Origin: Myxococcota bacterium
GTDB taxonomy: Bacteria > Myxococcota_A > Bradymonadia > UBA7976 > UBA1532
NCBI GenBank assembly: GCA_036337435.1
Contig: JAYZEG010000058.1
Span: forward strand, 192,001 to 256,000
Direction: 5' to 3'
DNA: 64,000 bases
Shown: one piece after another, positions 21,120 to 29,956 of the stretch
Numbering within the stretch: the stretch's first letter is position 1
Layout of the letters: every line of letters begins with the position of its first letter
The notes under the pieces: model-generated
Seen by the model: only the letters and a program-made list of their open reading frames with translations
The model's database searches: none
Told to the model about the DNA's origin: nothing
Made by a program: the position numbers and the translations under genes

Positions 21120-22235
21120 TTGACCGATCTGCAAGAGCGATCGAAGCTAGACGACATGTCAAAGCCTACGACCAAGCGGGCGAAAAGTGCCCACCTCGAT
21201 AAGAAAAGCATCAGGTCCGAATTGTTTTGGGTTGTTGGCTTGACGTTGGTGGTCACGGGTGGCTTGGCAGCCGCTCAATTTTCAATCGGTTGGATCAGAG
21301 AGTATATCTTGGCGGCTGTCGCTGCTCTCTTCTTGTATCTGCCCCTAGAAGTCCTTCATAAAAAAGGAATAGACCCCGCCGATTTCGGCATTAGCAGTAA
21401 ACCAGTTTGGCGGTCAATCAAACACGCTATTTGCGTCAGCATGATCATATTTCCCGGGTATTTTGCTGTCTACCATGTCTGGCAAACCCAGTGGCTCAAT
21501 AATCAGGTCAGAGAAAACTATGAGCGTCTAGATAAATGGCCGATGGAGATCCAAGACCGACCGAAAGTCGCGGACATGCAAGAGGGTGCTGTACGACTTT
21601 ACACGGAAGGCGAACTATTTTGGATTCGCTGGCACTTGCCCCCCGGGCAACAGTTCCATCTCCGCGCCAAAAGCGATGCTGTTTTAGAAACTCACGTGAG
21701 CAGACCCTATCATCGCTCTGAAAAAGAAATTAAGTATCGAGGGCCAAGCGATGGACGAGTTGCGTTCAAAACATCAGGTCAAAACCTCACACTTAACATT
21801 CAAGCCGGTGGGGATGAGCTTCCTGCAGACAGGTTAAAATTAGGTGCAAGTTTAAAATCAGCTGATGAAAATCCGATTTCATTTCACCGCAGTTATTGGT
21901 GGATCATTAATTTACTACTCGTCCAATTTTTACTCGTGGCACTCCCTGAAGAAGTTTTCTACCGAGGTTATCTTCAAACCAGGCTTGACCAACTGTTTCC
22001 AAAGCAAACGAAAGTGATGGGCGTCGATGTAAGCGTGATGAGTCTATTTCTGACCAGCTTGATCTTTGCTGTTGGACATTATGTTACAGTCCCATCACCG
22101 CATAGACTCGCTGTCTTTTTTCCAAGCCTACTCTTCGGATGGATGAGAAAAGCAAGTGGTGGAATACTCGCCCCCCTGATCTTTCATGCCCTTTGTAATC
22201 TTGCCGTTGAATTCGCATCTATGAACTATCACTAG
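21120..22235 (+). CDS. CPBP (type II CAAX) intramembrane glutamic protease, myxosortase-like, with a soluble insert
   Basis: EEVFYRGYLQ, FAVGH, RLAVFFPSLLFGWMR and HALCN, with multiple TM helices. Confidence 0.85.
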   Translation: MTDLQERSKLDDMSKPTTKRAKSAHLDKKSIRSELFWVVGLTLVVTGGLAAAQFSIGWIREYILAAVAALFLYLPLEVLHKKGIDPADFGISSKPVWRSIKHAICVSMIIFPGYFAVYHVWQTQWLNNQVRENYERLDKWPMEIQDRPKVADMQEGAVRLYTEGELFWIRWHLPPGQQFHLRAKSDAVLETHVSRPYHRSEKEIKYRGPSDGRVAFKTSGQNLTLNIQAGGDELPADRLKLGASLKSADENPISFHRSYWWIINLLLVQFLLVALPEEVFYRGYLQTRLDQLFPKQTKVMGVDVSVMSLFLTSLIFAVGHYVTVPSPHRLAVFFPSLLFGWMRKASGGILAPLIFHALCNLAVEFASMNYH

Positions 22236-22246
22236 GCCCGCCAAGT

Positions 22247-22651
22247 TCAGCGAGTCGCTTCAAGTTCTTTCACGCGTTTGAAGTAAGTGTTGCGATCATA
22301 CGGCTCATTGAGAATATGAAATTCTTTTCGAACAAGACCGACGCAACCGTAACAATAGGTACAATTCGAACAATCTTCGCAGTGGGATAAATATTGACTG
22401 TCTACGCAACGAACACTGTTTTTCGTATGGCTGCAACCGTGACAATCCGTACAACGATCAATGTGCGTGCAATGCGTGCACCGCGAACTAGACTGAGCAT
22501 ATTGACAGGCATAACAGGACTCACAGTCATCACAAAACATGCACTGCACACAACCTGTGCAGCCATCTGCGCTAAATGAATCAACATTACCCCGTTCGCT
22601 CAATTTCGTTCGAAGGGCTCTTAATTCTGACTCAAATTCCCTGCTATCCAT
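22247..22651 (-). CDS. Cys-rich Cxx-repeat protein of unknown function
   Basis: 18 Cys, mostly with 3-residue periodicity, ending CYGCVGL...ILNEPY. No signal peptide. Start is ATG 22651 or GTG 22678. Confidence 0.75.
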   Translation of the reverse strand: MDSREFESELRALRTKLSERGNVDSFSADGCTGCVQCMFCDDCESCYACQYAQSSSRCTHCTHIDRCTDCHGCSHTKNSVRCVDSQYLSHCEDCSNCTYCYGCVGLVRKEFHILNEPYDRNTYFKRVKELEATR

Positions 22652-22808
22652 CAAATAAACCTCACTTTGAGGGCACACTAGCGATGGTAGGTTGAGTGTG
22701 CAAGCAATGATATTAAGCTGTTATTTGAAGCGGATGCACAATGCTCGTTACATCTAGACTTTAGCCCTGTAATTTAGATGATAGAGTGTCGGCCAAAAGG
22801 TTTTAAGA

Positions 22809-23690
22809 ATGTCTCTAACAGAAGCGAGCATTGATACTGAACCGGAATCATCTCGTGATGAAACCGCAAACATCGCACTCTTGGTTACGATTCGTGGTCC
22901 AAAACTCGGCCAGAGACGAATTCTGGACCCACTCACGAAAGGGATAAGACTCGGTCGGGACGAAGGCGCAGATATTCCCCTCAATGATGACAGTGTATCT
23001 CGGTTTCATTGTGAGATTATTCGAGAGGAATCGGGCTGGTTTATTACCGATTTAGGCAGTACTAATGGGACCTATTTAGGTCATCAAGTCGTCGATAGAG
23101 CCCCCATCGAAAACGGTGACCTAATCAAGGTCGGCGCGACCATATTTAAGTTTTTATCTACAAAAGACATCGAATCCGCTTTCCACGAAGAAATTTACAG
23201 GATTGCCATCATAGACGGACTCACTCAAATCTATAACAGCCGCTACTTAGATGAGTTTCTAAATCGAGAAATTAGCCGCTGTCGGCGACACGGTCGACCC
23301 ATGTCACTCATCATGTTCGACCTAGACGGTTTCGAAGAGATTAACGAACAATTCGGTCAATTGTCAGGGGATCATGTTTTAAAATTCATCGCAGGAAAGT
23401 TGAATCGACGCATCAGGCGAGAGGAACTATTCGCACGATACAGAGCGGATGAATTCGTTGTCGCCCTCCCAGAGACCGATTTAGACGATGCCCTTAAGTT
23501 CGCAGATATAATAAGAGAGAGCGTTGAAATTATGCCCATCGCATTCGACGGCTGGAAGATACCGGTGAGTATTAGCGTGGGTGTCGGGCGCTTCGATCAT
23601 AAAATGACAAAAGCATCAGAATTACTCGACAATGCCCACGACGCATTAAATCGAGCAAAAGCTAAAGGTCGAAACCAGGTTTCCAGCTAA
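22809..23690 (+). CDS. FHA domain plus degenerate GGDEF domain protein
   Basis: FHA motifs GR, SRFH and GSTNGT. GGDEF-fold motifs DGLTQIYN and DLDGF; the signature reads RYRADEF. Confidence 0.88.
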   Translation: MSLTEASIDTEPESSRDETANIALLVTIRGPKLGQRRILDPLTKGIRLGRDEGADIPLNDDSVSRFHCEIIREESGWFITDLGSTNGTYLGHQVVDRAPIENGDLIKVGATIFKFLSTKDIESAFHEEIYRIAIIDGLTQIYNSRYLDEFLNREISRCRRHGRPMSLIMFDLDGFEEINEQFGQLSGDHVLKFIAGKLNRRIRREELFARYRADEFVVALPETDLDDALKFADIIRESVEIMPIAFDGWKIPVSISVGVGRFDHKMTKASELLDNAHDALNRAKAKGRNQVSS

Positions 23691-23697
23691 TACAACC

Positions 23698-26600
23698 ATG
23701 CGAAGGTCCACTTTTTTTGTCTTATTAATCATGGGTTGCTCCGGTAGTTCATCTTTTCAAAGTTGCTCTAGCGAGACCGATTATCAGTTTACGAGAACAG
23801 CAACAAACGTGATCGACGATAGCGTTCAAGGCGTCATAACATCACGAGGTTTTGACTTTATTTATGAAAACAGAGAAACGCTCGTAGGCTTGCTCTTCAA
23901 CATCGATTCAAATGGATGGGCGAGTATTCCAATCTCTGATTTTGGCCGAGATGGCGACAGCATCTCAGTTGCAGCCCGAGACTTAAATCTCGGGGTCGAA
24001 CTGCGCCGAGCAGAATTTGGAATCGAACTACTACCAAATCCATTGGCAATCCGAGTCGATATCCAAAATGCTCGACTCCGATTTAATGCCGGTATAGCGA
24101 GCATCATGGGACTATTCAACGGTGCATGCCTGCTGGGTAATGGGGTTGATCGAGACTCATTAAACGCATCTTTTGCATTGGTGGATTTAACAGTCATCCT
24201 CTATCCATCCATCGATTTGAATGGTTTCTTGAAAACGCGAGTTGAAGTCGAAAATCTCGTTTTAAGCGACATTAATGTAGACTTTATTTTCGATGAGGCA
24301 CTGCCGGAATGCCGCACTTCAAATTGTGCGACTCTTTGCAGCACAGGCGAGCTCGGTGCCGCAGTCACCGAAATTCTCTATGAGGCTTTCAGGGAAGAGA
24401 TCGGCTCATTGATTACTCCCGTGCTCGAAATTATCGTCAACGAGACCCTTGATGAATTAAACGACACGCCACTTCTGTTTGAGGGAGAATTACTTCCAAG
24501 TATTTTGTCGGCTGTTCTGCCATTGCCCCGAGATGCCCTTAAAATAGGTGTGTTGTTGGAACCAGGTTCAAATGCAATAGAGTACATCGCTGGAGCGAAC
24601 GAAAATCCAGGTATTGGTCTGAGATTAAACATTGGGACCGATGGACACGACCATCCATGCGTTCCAGAGCAAGTAGACGAACCTGGATTCCTATCAGGTC
24701 CTGTACCAGACTTGAGCGGGTCTGATCCAAACGGCAACCCAGCCCACTTCGGCATAAGTGTTTCTAATGGCACCATTAATCGGCTGATATGGAGTTTTTG
24801 GCGAGGTGGATATTTGTGCCTTAGACTCGATTCAGACCAAATTGAATCGAGCCTTGGAAGTCGAATCGATTCAGACACATTGTCCATTTTTTTACCGAGC
24901 TTGGCGACCCTCGCGAAACAATCAAAACCCATCATGGTGGTCATTGACCCTGGGTTTAGTTCATCAGATTTCCCACTCACGAAACTTAATAATGTGGAGA
25001 CAGCCGCGTCGATTCCACAAGCGGGCATAGAAATGAAATTGCCTCGACTGGGAATCGATATGTACGTCTATCTCAATGACCGATGGACCCGGATGACTCA
25101 AGTCGTTACCGATGCGGAAATGGATCTTGTGATTCAAGCAGGGGAAAATAATGAACTGATTCTGACAGGTGAAGCACCACGGATTGGGGAGATTCGTGTG
25201 ACCTACAATGAACTCTTAGAATCCGATGATGTCGAGGCGTTATTGAGAGCCATGTTGGATGTAGCAGTTGGTGCATTTTTAAGTGATGGACTCGACTTTG
25301 ACTTCTCTCTGACGGGTCTTATATCGAGAAGCACAGGCCTACCCTATGACCTCAATATCTCGACCATTTCTTCAACGGGAACCGATGGGGACCACCTTGG
25401 GATTTATATGAATCTCATACCTGAGACCAGTTCAAATGCGCTTCGAAGACAAATCCAAACCTGGGCCGAAATTAAGGCTATCAATGGATACGATGCCCGG
25501 CTCAAGGTACGCTCTGAAGGCATTGACAATCCTGCATATCAGTATCGATTCAATGGTGGTATCTGGAGACCAATCCGAGAGGCAGACAGCGGCATCCTAA
25601 GCATTTCAGAACCTCGGTTTGGTCTAAAAACGACACAATTTTTAGAGGTACGAGCTGTAGACAAAGATGATCCGAAAAGAGTCGACCATCGACCAGTAAG
25701 ACTCGTTTATCATCCCGACCTAAACGAGCATTTAAAAGACGAACCTTTATCGAGTGGTCATGGTTGCAACTCAAATCCAAATCGCAATGGTTCAAACATA
25801 GTCTTCTGTCTAAGTGTTTTGATTCTATGTCATCGACGGTTTCGAACCAGGTTAGTGACAGCCATTTTTCTAATCCTGTTCGTTGGGGCTTGCCAAGGTC
25901 CGTCAAAGGCACCTGACTTACCGTGTTCAACGGACGCAGAATGTCCCAGTGGACTTGCATGTCTAGATGACTTTTGCCGGCCTCAGAAACCATGCCAAAC
26001 AGACGATCAGTGCTGCGCCAAGCAAGTCTGTCAACAAGGGAAATGTCGATCCGCACCAACCGATGACTGCCAGAATTCTGGATGCCTAACACACCAGGAC
26101 TGTATCGATGATTACTGTGTCGCACGCGAGTGTGAACAAGATTCTGAATGTCGTGGTGCAAAATGCGTCCGAAATCTATGCCTTGAAAGCACACCATGTG
26201 GCGACCGTTGTACGCCTGAAGAAACCTGTGTTCCTCATCGTAACGTGTGTCGAATTCTCACAGGAAATTGCGCACAGACATGCCCAAGTGGTTCGGTGCG
26301 AGTCGCGTTAAATTCAAGTCAATTGAGTCAATCTGTATGCGATATTGAGGCGGTTGTCTGTGAATGTCTAAGTGCCTTTGGGCAGCATGTGGGTGCCATC
26401 GCACGCGAGGCGGACATGGCAATTGTCGAGGGGCAGCCTGTCTTTGCCGTCTTCGACGCATTCTATGAAGACTTGGTTTTGATCACCGGGCTCGGCACCG
26501 ACTTGGAATCTCATTATTACATGGATGGATTTCCGTCCTCGATAGACCAACCGACACCGAGTTTGACACGCTATGGAGAACAACTGGCGGGTCCTGTGAC

Positions 26601-27579
26601 AGGACTCTATCCACAAGTTGAATCCGACTCCGCAGGGCGCTTGCACTTTGCCTATTACGACGCAGATGAGAAGCATCTGCGATACATGAGACGAGACCGA
26701 CAAAACCGCTGGACAGGTCCAATTGTGGTCGATGATAGCGGCGACGTTGGCCACCATGTCAAATTAGAGATTGATCACCTCGACCGCCCTCACTTGGTCT
26801 ACTCCGTATTCAGTGATCCCAGAGGTCAGGATGGACTGAGGTATGCGTTAGGCTCCAACACAGCAGAAACTCGGTCTCACTTTGAAATCGTAAACATTGC
26901 ATCTGCACCGAGCCAAGGACCAGCTGGGCCATTGAGAGAAAGACCAACCCGTTTCGGTCAAAGACCGTGTATGTCGCTCGACGGTGATCAAGTGGTCACA
27001 GCATTTATGGATGGTAACGAAAAGTGGCTCTACATCGCCCGAGGCGGTTCACAGGGCTTCCGTATCGAACGCCTACGGGGCCGATTGGATGAATCGAACA
27101 TTAGGGTCCAAGATGAGCGTTATGAGGATTTCAATACCCATGAGATTGGTGAACATTGTGCGATCAAGTCACGCAACGGCACGATCGATCTCGCTTTCAC
27201 CAATGAACGAACTTGGGCACTCATGAGTTACCATGGCTCCATCGACGGCCAAGGCATCATTCAAGTGGTTGATTCGGGCCCTAAGGAGCAAAGAACAATG
27301 ATCGGCTCATCACCCGCGTTGGGATTCGTTGGCAACAATAAACTCATTGCCCTCTATCAAGACTCAACTCGCAATGACCTCTTGATGAATATTAGAGAGA
27401 ATGAACAATGGCTCGAGGAGCCGGTCGTTATCGAGTCGAACGGGGCTGTTGGTTATTCTAATAGTCTAGAAATCCAACAAAATGAGGCTTTGATCGGCAC
27501 TGTTAAATTCGTCACGGATATTGGAGGACGTGACCTGAGCCAGATTTTATTTATCCCCGTCAATCTCAGCGGATATTGA
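23698..27579 (+). CDS. Large multidomain surface lipoprotein / putative polyprotein: BPI/LBP-like, internal MYXO-CTERM-like, second lipoprotein signal, Cys-rich repeats, propeller-like
   Basis: One uninterrupted 1293-aa ORF with lipobox IMGC(14). Internal segment SSGHGC(690)...hydrophobic...HRRFR...LFVGAC(732). Confidence 0.75.
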   Translation: MRRSTFFVLLIMGCSGSSSFQSCSSETDYQFTRTATNVIDDSVQGVITSRGFDFIYENRETLVGLLFNIDSNGWASIPISDFGRDGDSISVAARDLNLGVELRRAEFGIELLPNPLAIRVDIQNARLRFNAGIASIMGLFNGACLLGNGVDRDSLNASFALVDLTVILYPSIDLNGFLKTRVEVENLVLSDINVDFIFDEALPECRTSNCATLCSTGELGAAVTEILYEAFREEIGSLITPVLEIIVNETLDELNDTPLLFEGELLPSILSAVLPLPRDALKIGVLLEPGSNAIEYIAGANENPGIGLRLNIGTDGHDHPCVPEQVDEPGFLSGPVPDLSGSDPNGNPAHFGISVSNGTINRLIWSFWRGGYLCLRLDSDQIESSLGSRIDSDTLSIFLPSLATLAKQSKPIMVVIDPGFSSSDFPLTKLNNVETAASIPQAGIEMKLPRLGIDMYVYLNDRWTRMTQVVTDAEMDLVIQAGENNELILTGEAPRIGEIRVTYNELLESDDVEALLRAMLDVAVGAFLSDGLDFDFSLTGLISRSTGLPYDLNISTISSTGTDGDHLGIYMNLIPETSSNALRRQIQTWAEIKAINGYDARLKVRSEGIDNPAYQYRFNGGIWRPIREADSGILSISEPRFGLKTTQFLEVRAVDKDDPKRVDHRPVRLVYHPDLNEHLKDEPLSSGHGCNSNPNRNGSNIVFCLSVLILCHRRFRTRLVTAIFLILFVGACQGPSKAPDLPCSTDAECPSGLACLDDFCRPQKPCQTDDQCCAKQVCQQGKCRSAPTDDCQNSGCLTHQDCIDDYCVARECEQDSECRGAKCVRNLCLESTPCGDRCTPEETCVPHRNVCRILTGNCAQTCPSGSVRVALNSSQLSQSVCDIEAVVCECLSAFGQHVGAIAREADMAIVEGQPVFAVFDAFYEDLVLITGLGTDLESHYYMDGFPSSIDQPTPSLTRYGEQLAGPVTGLYPQVESDSAGRLHFAYYDADEKHLRYMRRDRQNRWTGPIVVDDSGDVGHHVKLEIDHLDRPHLVYSVFSDPRGQDGLRYALGSNTAETRSHFEIVNIASAPSQGPAGPLRERPTRFGQRPCMSLDGDQVVTAFMDGNEKWLYIARGGSQGFRIERLRGRLDESNIRVQDERYEDFNTHEIGEHCAIKSRNGTIDLAFTNERTWALMSYHGSIDGQGIIQVVDSGPKEQRTMIGSSPALGFVGNNKLIALYQDSTRNDLLMNIRENEQWLEEPVVIESNGAVGYSNSLEIQQNEALIGTVKFVTDIGGRDLSQILFIPVNLSGY

Positions 27580-28691: not shown

Positions 28692-29720
28692 CTATCTCTT
28701 GATGCCTCGGGTCCTCTTGGACGCCGGTAACACTTTCGGTTCTTTACGCGACGGCTGCAAGCCCAGTCTCAAATTAGCTCTATTAAATTCGTAACCGGTC
28801 AACTTTTCGTATGTCGACTTCAATGATGAGGGGGGTCTTACGATCCGATGCTTTGGTTCCTTAATCAGCTCACCAAATGAGTCTGATTCGACTGCGACTT
28901 TAATTAAAATTGTAAAGGGAATTTTTCCGTTAAATCCGTATTCAATTGCGATGTCGCCAGCCCTGATCGAGCCAGTCTCACTCTCGAATTCCAACCGAGC
29001 GTTTAAGGTTTGCAATGACCCGTACCGGGCCAGCATAGACGGAGAATACTGGTTATCGTCGTCCAGTAAAATATCCCAAACAAATGGTTCTTTCGGAAAG
29101 GTATCAGTCTTTATTTGGGGTGAATCATGACGAGTTAAAATCAGGGTTTTCCAGATATTTGGTGGTCCATCTGCCTCTACATCCGCACGACTGTCAGACT
29201 GAGTTGTTTCAACAAGCTGAGGAATCCAATCGAGCGAATTTTCGAGGCAATTCCGGTCGTATATGTGAGCTGGTTGAAACTGAATCCATGAGTCAGACTC
29301 TCGCTTGATCATAGACTGACCATTAATCTGCAAACAGCGGAGCACCCGGGTATGATCATATCCGTCTTGCCGTTTCAAGGTAGTCTCGATGCTATGCGTC
29401 CACGAGCCCTTGATATCAACCTTCGTTTTTGACACCTCAACCAAATGGAAAGCCAGACCATCCTTGTTTCTCAGGGACAGTTCAACACGGGCTTTTAAAG
29501 CCAGTCCCGTCAATGCAGAGACTCGACGATGAATATTCAATCCCGATGATTTGATGATGGGGTGTCTTGGGTCGGTTTTCAAAGACGACGGATTTTCTAA
29601 CCGAACAGCTTGCAAAAGTTCATGAGCGAGTCGTCCAGATTTTTCTTTCGTTTGAGATTGGCAAGCAAACAAGTGTGTAGCCAAGATCCAAGTACACACG
29701 TTGCGAATAACCAGTGACAT
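28692..29720 (-). CDS. Hypothetical lipoprotein
   Basis: A long ORF filling the gap, with lipobox-like HLFAC. The start is uncertain. Confidence 0.55.
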   Translation of the reverse strand: MSLVIRNVCTWILATHLFACQSQTKEKSGRLAHELLQAVRLENPSSLKTDPRHPIIKSSGLNIHRRVSALTGLALKARVELSLRNKDGLAFHLVEVSKTKVDIKGSWTHSIETTLKRQDGYDHTRVLRCLQINGQSMIKRESDSWIQFQPAHIYDRNCLENSLDWIPQLVETTQSDSRADVEADGPPNIWKTLILTRHDSPQIKTDTFPKEPFVWDILLDDDNQYSPSMLARYGSLQTLNARLEFESETGSIRAGDIAIEYGFNGKIPFTILIKVAVESDSFGELIKEPKHRIVRPPSSLKSTYEKLTGYEFNRANLRLGLQPSRKEPKVLPASKRTRGIKR

Positions 29721-29956
29721 AGAATCCATCCAAATGGGAAACCGATCCGGTTGTGACGCAAACAAAACTGAGTCAATGAATCAACAAAAATAGTCATGCC
29801 GATCCCTTTAATTCTTGGGCCCTTGACCGGTGTAAATCGTCCGCCAGGAACAGACCGAAAAGCATTGAACCTGCTCGCTGATGTTAAAAATCAACCTCGT
29901 ATTAGGTAAAAATGCCGTCAGAACGGCTAAATTGCCTCAAATAATCACTTCTTTCA

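Follow-up and report, generated by a model that had tools for sequence, protein, structure and literature searches.

An internal MYXO-CTERM-like tail joined to a lipoprotein signal in a Myxococcota protein family: a putative precursor of two lipid-anchored proteins

Background

Bacterial proteins are generally held to bear export signals at their start and sorting tags at their end. In the lipoprotein pathway, the signal peptide carries a lipobox and is handled by Lgt and LspA. Viruses and eukaryotes also possess polyproteins that are cut at internal signal sequences by membrane signal peptidases; to our knowledge, polyproteins cut at internal membrane signals are textbook matter for viruses and not for bacteria. 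The subject of this report is a 1293-amino-acid (aa) protein encoded at 23698-27579 of a 64-kb window (the whole stretch of DNA analysed, positions 192001-256000 of contig C58) from a Myxococcota genome that is 87% complete in 95 contigs, in which a sorting tail of the MYXO-CTERM type is followed directly by a second lipoprotein signal. Public sequencing runs containing the window are marine or seawater metagenomes. The reading favoured here, with rather better than even confidence, is that this open reading frame (ORF) encodes a precursor of two tail-to-head lipoproteins which would be cut into lipid-anchored partners in a 1:1 ratio.

The second signal resembles an ordinary lipoprotein signal in its positive n-region, short h-region and lipobox (G-A-C), it is N-terminal in split orthologues, and both lgt and lspA are found in the genome. 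It differs in that it lies 718 residues into the chain and that its n-region is tethered to another membrane segment. With viral and eukaryotic polyproteins, the protein would share the principle of one chain threaded back and forth through the membrane and cut at internal signals into separate proteins. Unlike them, it is bacterial, the proposed cutters are signal peptidase II and a CPBP-family protease, and both new ends would be lipidated.

The closest described system is that of the MYXO-CTERM proteins and their myxosortases, including TraA and MrtX of Myxococcus xanthus and MrtP in Bradymonadales. MrtX cuts MYXO-CTERM, lipidation of the cysteine before cleavage has been proposed, and sorting tags are stated to work in mid-protein (Guo, Haft and Wall, mBio 2025, PMC11980579). 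The protein examined here is like these substrates in its Gly-Cys pair, short helix, Arg cluster and N-terminal signal. Moreover, its genome holds many tails and one myxosortase, and orthologous tails pass curated hidden Markov model (HMM) cut-offs. In contrast to known MYXO-CTERM proteins, its tail is internal and runs straight into a second export signal, and its own copy falls below the HMM thresholds.

An internal MYXO-CTERM has been proposed, in the Discussion of the same paper, to be the product of a fusion of two genes in M. xanthus MXAN_5598, the N-terminal part being still processed and anchored (PMC11980579). Both cases present a mid-protein sorting tail read as gene fusion. MXAN_5598, however, combines an adhesin with a downstream outer-membrane barrel and OmpA domain, and a lipoprotein signal after the tail goes unmentioned in that Discussion. 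It is also a single protein noted in passing, whereas the present case concerns a phylum-wide family with ATGA-linked split forms and a second, apparently independent fusion. This remark is the sole printed precedent found in a literature search that lacked most subscription journals; the text of the paper's supplement holds no list of internal tails, and its Table S1 may contain more. The same search, with the same coverage, retrieved no paper on internal lipoprotein signals of this kind. TraA and TraB of M. xanthus, a MYXO-CTERM protein and a partner encoded by overlapping ORFs (PMC11980579), resemble the split state described below in that a tail-bearing protein and its partner come from overlapping, co-expressed genes. 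They differ in being unrelated to the present proteins and in the genes being unfused, and TraB is not described as a lipoprotein in the text of that paper.

Results

The initial annotation described one stop-free ORF with three candidate lipidation cysteines, Cys14, Cys690 and Cys732, and this description proves correct in all its coordinates: 23698-27579 (+) is a single stop-free frame, the stop codon being included in these coordinates. Cys14 (codon 23737-23739) stands in the context LLIMGC. The central region, aa 686-733, reads SGHG-C690-NSNPNRNGSN-IVFCLSVLILC-HRRFRTR-LVTAIFLILFVGA-C732-Q. Cys690 (codon tgc, 25765-25767, context SSGHGC) is followed by NSNPNRNGSN, the hydrophobic segment IVFCLSVLILC (aa 701-711) and the basic cluster HRRFRTR (aa 712-718); then comes LVTAIFLILFVGA (aa 719-731), which leads to Cys732 (codon tgc, 25891-25893). 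The three-part build of a MYXO-CTERM signal is present in G689-C690, the hydrophobic IVFCLSVLILC and the basic HRRFRTR, and that of a signal peptidase II signal in RRFRTR, LVTAIFLILFV and G-A-C732, the tail's own basic cluster (RRFRTR) doubling as the n-region. Both differ from their models in position: the tail ends at aa 718 of 1293 and not at the extreme C terminus, and the lipoprotein signal is internal and not N-terminal. In split orthologues, the tail is terminal and, in all five, the lipoprotein signal is N-terminal.

A lipobox pattern of PROSITE type has exactly two matches in the 1293-aa protein, at aa 4-14 and 722-732, and a regular expression (regex) for the succession of cysteine, helix, basic cluster, helix and lipobox finds only three matches among the 6947 six-frame ORFs of at least 120 aa in the whole 4.38-Mb genome. 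The tail-to-head joint therefore exceeds chance expectation.

The ORF is real and not an assembly artefact, because the joint is spanned with 0 gaps by contigs from runs of three different studies (X2, 25500-25933; X4, 25500-25982; X5, 25816-26152) and because a sister species carries the same gene as one intact ORF at 80% identity. A stop or frameshift near position 25840, named in the initial annotation as one observation that would speak against the reading, is seen in none of these independent assemblies. A contig from an RNA library (X19) spans 25958-26180 only; it stops short of the joint and is no proof of transcription. The recorded gene call for the ORF (P0002, 1256 aa) begins 37 codons downstream of the start used here, whereby the N-terminal lipoprotein signal is lost (region 23698-23811).

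The homologue search returned 4 close relatives. A single open frame without stops over nearly the whole length of the protein (P0001) is found in 12 relatives from nine genera at 31-80% identity. Eleven of them, in 8 genera, keep a clean single ORF; the further one, G016, has a locally garbled joint. The alignment of fused proteins (A1) comprises 15 sequences, namely 12 orthologues including the ORF itself and 3 paralogues of 1388-1436 aa (one of them from the ORF's own contig), with 22-83% identity. Both Cys690 and Cys732 are invariant in it (15/15), Gly689 and one Arg of the loop are conserved in at least 90% of the sequences, and the two hydrophobic segments between the cysteines keep hydrophobicity alone. 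The N-terminal lipobox Cys is present in 14 of the 15, and the internal lipobox pattern likewise fits 14 of the 15. The conservation which the initial annotation had proposed to examine is thus found, both cysteines and the helix/Arg/helix hairpin being kept throughout A1 and in 114 of the best 150 representatives of the wider family. As judged from this alignment, strong constraint on both putative lipidation cysteines is established.

Four loci are excluded from the counts of fused and split forms: L008 of G016 with its garbled joint, L016 of G021, whose joint is in another frame, and the copies of G010 and G024, which are cut by contig ends. In L008 (G016:C10) and L016 (G021:C23), both halves are good, but the joint region between them is in a different frame or reads as nonsense rich in Arg and Pro; these could be local frameshifts, assembly errors or decaying joints.

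The initial annotation had suggested looking for genomes with the two halves as separate genes, and five such genomes are found (G011, G018, G008, G034 and G030). All five divide exactly at the Arg cluster, which the initial annotation had taken to serve both as the tail of half 1 and as the n-region of half 2. Gene 1 bears a terminal tail in each, ending GC-helix-RRRR-stop in 4 of the 5 (for example ...VGCATGEAFALWSMWLLLAVRRRR-stop), the tail of G034 having about 20 extra residues beyond the basic cluster. A lipoprotein signal opens gene 2 in 5/5 (for example MKRALVLCLALLGC). In all five, the final TGA of gene 1 shares bases with the initial ATG of gene 2 (ATGA), an arrangement that commonly marks translational coupling. 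A half-2 maximum-likelihood tree with 20 rows requires at least 4 changes between fused and split states, the direction of change being not resolved. The approximately unbiased (AU) test rejects a single clade for the three split forms of the ORF's family (p 0.00056; a group named after the tree was seen). The tree and the AU test establish, at the level of gene phylogeny, that one-gene and two-gene forms replace each other in evolution, which suggests that the two states are functionally interchangeable. It is proposed that the fused form yields the same products as the two-gene form of its relatives. The joint of the ORF also contains GTGA at 25855-25858, its GTG being the in-frame Val720 and its TGA lying in the +1 frame, with TAG before it at 25853-25855; it resembles the ATGA of the split relatives and may be due to chance.

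Taken together, these comparisons establish, as far as sequence can, that the middle of the ORF is a sorting tail of C-terminal type fused to a lipoprotein signal of N-terminal type. They also support the earlier reading of the joint as that of a putative polyprotein.

The family is large. A profile built from 15 sequences (aa 285 to the end) and searched against 1.84 billion representatives matches 20731 proteins at E <=0.001, 2539 of them at E <=1e-30; many of those with poorer E values are no more than Cys-rich or propeller relatives. Among the best 150, the regex detects the internal joint in 114, and a further 12 have the fused length with two hydrophobic peaks at the expected place (both cysteines being present in the four checked by eye). 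The others are half-1-only proteins ending GC-helix-RRRR (3), half-2-only proteins with a lipoprotein signal at their N-terminus (5), unrelated long repeat proteins (12) and fragments (4). The figure of more than 100 fused representatives is a count of clusters at 50% identity. Of the 114 joints, 98 have Gly directly before the tail Cys, a residue on which the regex set no condition. The residue at -1 of the lipobox, a position which the regex did demand, is G in 75, A in 33 and S in 6. The loop has a median of 5 residues, 4 of them basic, and the lipobox Cys follows the last basic residue at a median distance of 17 residues. Within a sample of 151 genomes of the phylum, 71 match at E <=1e-20, including all 29 of the ORF's class and many of other classes; one family of the sample is mostly split. 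Neither half belongs to a Pfam or NCBIfam family, and no Pfam match appears at E <=1.

The genome encodes the machinery that the proposed route needs, a myxosortase together with Lgt and LspA. MrtP is the single match of its model in its own genome and has one match in 40 of 41 relatives; the Haft preprint (10.1101/2023.06.07.544157) names MrtP as the Bradymonadales myxosortase. Its assignment by sequence makes it the candidate enzyme for the cut at the internal tail. The mrtP gene lies 1.5 kb upstream of the ORF. Across the 21 genomes with the gene, this distance is 1.5-5.2 kb in 7 and >150 kb in 2, and the two genes lie on different contigs in 12, so that proximity to mrtP is weak evidence. 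The genes lspA (105.3 bits, cut-off 73.95) and lgt (115.9 bits, or 122.1 with neighbours, cut-off 118.9) are adjacent at C41:38275-39742.

The TIGR03901 model has 12 matches in the genome at E <=0.01, and a regex for Cys, helix and Arg finds 49 tails at ORF ends, part of which are noise. The genome thus holds many unrelated tail proteins along with a cognate myxosortase, and the protein itself has an N-terminal lipobox, as is usual for MYXO-CTERM proteins. The terminal tails of this genome have the same build as the internal one: G-C, about ten polar residues, about twelve hydrophobic residues and RRRR. The initial annotation had suggested running TIGR03901 over the tail, and the outcome is divided. 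The ORF's own tail gives no match. Curated MYXO-CTERM cut-offs are reached by 4 of the 15 fused joints (L006, 20.0; L009, 21.2; L011, 21.8; the paralogue L022, 27.7 and 23.5) and by two split tails, that of G008 (TIGR03901 22.1, cut-off 20; TIGR03382 24, cut-off 15.85) and that of G030 (TIGR03382 22, cut-off 15.85). Within the ORF's own genus, the joints give no MYXO-CTERM HMM match. These misses are put down to the low-GC composition of the genus, and the negative result stands for this copy.

The model NF058595 (invert_tail, 'lipo-invert putative C-terminal anchoring domain') was considered as a home for the joint and rejected: it scores 13-22 bits on 8 of the 15 joints against a cut-off of 37, has no match above cut-off in the source genome, matches weakly in all 14 control genomes, and matches 0 of the 151 phylum genomes at E <=1e-6. 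Its weak matches in the source genome (C30:96341-96562 and several others) run across 1-3 stop codons, and the match on C30 begins within the terminal tail of a MYXO-CTERM gene ending at C30:96438. Such places may be further close pairs of a tail gene and a lipoprotein gene, the raw material for fusions.

A genome-wide regex search reveals a second joint outside the window, in a 1172-aa ORF at C95:23572-27087 (L037:1073-4588, +). It consists of a lipoprotein signal, a trypsin domain (PF00089), MopE motifs, the joint, and a half ending in a C-type lectin domain (PF00059). The joint reads GAG-C-A-C...helix-RRPHRLRSK-helix-LSG-C, and the protein has nothing beyond it in common with that of 23698-27579. 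Its fused form is kept in the four genomes of the genus that were searched. The best relatives outside the genus (four examined) and a paralogue on C69 are half-1-only proteins with terminal tails. By this distribution, the ORF on C95 is, in terms of sequence relationships, a younger and independent fusion of the same kind. On the contig of the window, but outside the window itself, lies a 1388-aa paralogue that shares the architecture of the ORF at 23698-27579 (L020, G000:C58:27500-33000, -), with the joint GGCEC...helix...KPRRRLNRRR...helix...MVGC; members of this paralogous family occur in nearly all of the 41 relatives searched.

Structural models assign folds to both halves. The AlphaFold2 (AF2) model of half 1, with a predicted local distance difference test score (pLDDT) of 79.8, is matched by Foldseek to LBP (4m4d, 4.3e-16), BPI (1bp1, 2.3e-15) and CETP (2obd, 5.7e-15) over about 570 columns. 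These matches cover the whole two-lobed TULIP fold of BPI, LBP and CETP (E 4e-16 to 6e-15). Half 1 differs from these proteins in being bacterial, in having no sequence-family match, in its proposed lipid anchor at both ends and in its pairing with a propeller, the likeness being one of predicted fold. PF01273 and PF02886 (LBP_BPI_CETP) find no sequence match in half 1. In one Atlas cluster with a score of 0.80, 21% of the members have PF01273; all Atlas scores being <0.9, this is no more than a lead. The AF2 model of half 2 (pLDDT 86.4) shows a stalk built of small, disulfide-rich hairpins and, after it, a beta-propeller which resembles those of sialidases and bacterial lectins (Foldseek: pseudaminidase 2w38, 1.4e-10; PLL/PHL lectins).

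The predicted complex of the TULIP part (half-1 residues 20-600) with the propeller (half-2 residues 165-562) scores 0.90 in three runs, the best control scoring 0.00. The mark of 0.90 is reached by 116 of 157 solved complexes and by 2 of 215 mismatched pairs, counts which are approximate here since custom alignments were used. Contacts agree to at least 91% among the three runs, and the pLDDT of the partners is at least 88. The predicted interface includes an invariant R-W-x-R of half 1 (aa 462-465) and a Q-D-x-T of half 2 (aa 1221-1224), in which Q-D is invariant and T nearly so. The models support binding of the two halves to each other.

The features of the ORF and the upstream myxosortase gene are listed in Table 1. 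A gene for an FHA and GGDEF diguanylate cyclase (22809-23690, +) ends 7 nucleotides (nt) before the ORF, and co-transcription is possible. Between it and mrtP lies a 143-aa ORF (22247-22678, -) rich in Cys-x-x-Cys and His-Cys motifs, and a 357-aa ORF with a hydrophobic N-terminus is found beside proB (28692-29765, -); neither has an NCBIfam match.

Table 1. Features of the fused ORF and the upstream myxosortase gene (window coordinates)
Feature	Coordinates	Strand	Evidence
MrtP myxosortase, CPBP-family intramembrane glutamic protease	21120..22235	+	NF040674, 383.3 bits against cut-off 250, positions 2-354 of 354
Fused ORF, 1293 aa	23698..27579	+	start ATG 23698 backed by P0004 and P0005, homologues with the same N-terminal signal intact
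Half 1, N-terminal lipoprotein signal MRRSTFFVLLIMG-C14	23698..23739	+	lipobox match aa 4-14; lipobox Cys in 14/15 aligned relatives
Half 1, predicted two-lobed TULIP (BPI/LBP/CETP-like) fold, ~aa 38-578	23809..25431	+	AF2 model, Foldseek; no Pfam match
Half 1, C-terminal all-beta module, ~aa 587-673	25456..25716	+	strands 574-658 in half-1 model; consensus motif YQWR..GGPWRP..EVRAV conserved
Internal MYXO-CTERM-like tail: G-C690, 10-aa polar spacer, IVFCLSVLILC, HRRFRTR	25765..25851	+	Cys690 invariant 15/15; build like the genome's terminal tails
Hydrophobic segment IVFCLSVLILC of tail	25798-25830	+	sequence
Basic cluster HRRFRTR of tail	25831-25851	+	sequence
Second lipoprotein signal: h-region LVTAIFLILFV, lipobox G-A-C732	25852..25893	+	lipobox match aa 722-732; Cys732 invariant 15/15; gene-2 start in split orthologues
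Half 2, stalk (small beta-hairpin modules rich in Cys), aa 733 to ~896	25894..26385	+	AF2 pLDDT 86.4; many columns of invariant Cys; 28 Cys after Cys732
Half 2, predicted beta-propeller, ~aa 897-1293	26386..27576	+	Foldseek propeller matches; predicted docking on TULIP half

Discussion

In the proposed processing route, the two short hydrophobic segments (11 and 13 residues) around HRRFRTR would span the membrane as a hairpin; its Arg loop would be cytoplasmic, and the two large halves extracytoplasmic. Lgt would lipidate Cys732 and LspA would cut before it, freeing half 2 as an ordinary lipoprotein. Cys690 would be lipidated by a lipid transferase, and MrtP would cut behind it, leaving half 1 with a lipid anchor on each end, at Cys14 and at Cys690. 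A hairpin peptide of 41 residues (aa 691-731) would be left in the membrane, and the mature halves would assemble as a 1:1 TULIP/propeller complex. Cleavage, lipidation and a surface location of the products are all inferred.

Several observations weigh against this route. The ORF's own tail has no TIGR03901 or TIGR03382 match even at E <=10, in searches with the whole protein and with pieces of 71 and 88 aa, and the fused joints other than the four named above also score below the curated cut-offs. After the LspA cut, the tail of half 1 would bear an extra hydrophobic segment which is foreign to normal MYXO-CTERM tails, and the second signal is preceded by another membrane segment, unlike the usual substrate of Lgt and LspA. 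The activity of MrtP is itself a prediction, in the part of the literature at hand. Fused forms far outnumber split ones, and the covalent link could itself be useful. The tight contact predicted between the halves would fit an uncut two-domain protein equally well. Finally, the parity of the cysteines of half 1 is uninformative (49 even against 43 odd; 7 in the ORF).

The alternative that survives best, although we consider it unlikely, is that only one of the two signals is used. Either LspA frees half 2 and half 1 is held in the inner membrane by the hairpin, or MrtP alone cuts and half 2 keeps its signal as an uncleaved anchor. The non-canonical tail left by LspA, with its second hydrophobic segment, would fit such partial processing, as would the failure of the ORF's tail in the MYXO-CTERM HMMs and the statement that the sorting defects of an mrtX mutant are not absolute (mBio 2025, PMC11980579). 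However, the invariance of both cysteines (15/15) and the retention of Gly-Cys in 98 of 114 joints are hard to explain if one signal is idle. Moreover, split forms use both signals as terminal ones, and fused and split forms have been interchanged repeatedly.

It is unlikely, slightly more so than partial processing, that the chain is never cut and that the joint is a plain helical hairpin anchoring one two-domain protein in the inner membrane, its cysteines being kept for a disulfide or for acylation without cleavage. The dominance of the fused state in the family and the predicted packing of the halves, like domains of one protein, would be natural in such a case. Against it, the hydrophobic segments are only 11 and 13 residues long in the ORF and their sequence is unconserved beyond hydrophobicity, a full lipobox is present in 14 of the 15 aligned proteins, and cleavable signals typically show a spacing like the median of 17 residues between last basic residue and lipobox Cys. 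A disulfide partner for Cys732 is also argued against because 99 of 116 fused proteins have an even number of cysteines beyond the lipobox Cys (28 in the ORF), a figure to which no probability is attached as the relatives are not independent. In addition, the existence of split forms indicates that the covalent link is dispensable.

Far less probable is an internal start, by which half 2 would be made separately from GTG720 and the long ORF would amount to two overlapping genes. The GTG at 25855-25857 stands just before the h-region, and its GTGA resembles the ATGA of the split forms. No Met or Val is conserved at the joint, however, among 13 aligned fused sequences, the 80%-identical sister having Leu-Gly there, and a natural variant in run X5 carries C at 25856, which changes GTG720 to GCG; half 2 thus has no conserved start of its own. 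Furthermore, AGG lies only 3 nt upstream of the GTG, and half 1 would still be translated through the site and would therefore not be ended by GTG720. A sequencing or assembly error that removed a stop or shifted the frame between two genes can practically be dismissed: the genes of the split relatives are in different frames with a 4-nt overlap, so that one indel could fuse them, but the gap-free contigs of three studies, the clean single ORFs of 11 relatives in 8 genera and the more than 100 fused representatives all speak against it.

The preferred reading, that of a precursor cut at both signals, can be extended. There is about an even chance that Myxococcota possess a general polyprotein route in which a back-to-back hairpin of tail and lipoprotein signal is cut by myxosortase and LspA, the products forming an obligate complex of a doubly tethered BPI-like protein and a propeller lipoprotein, and in which the joint has arisen independently in unrelated proteins. 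The TULIP/propeller complex could be a lipid-handling device of the envelope in these predatory bacteria. How the MYXO-CTERM cysteine is lipidated and cut is named as an open question in the mBio paper (PMC11980579), and if the precursor is cut as proposed it would be a ready substrate for studying both steps. It would also be a warning to annotation pipelines, which treat such ORFs as single hypothetical proteins.

A predicted fold and a predicted partner are now assigned to a large family without a Pfam or NCBIfam model. The fusion of a sorting tag to a lipoprotein signal has been preserved across this phylum-wide family, alternates with a two-gene arrangement and turns up again in an unrelated gene. 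Should the proposed cuts take place, the joint would represent a new way of fixing subunit stoichiometry, by a mode barely described in bacteria.

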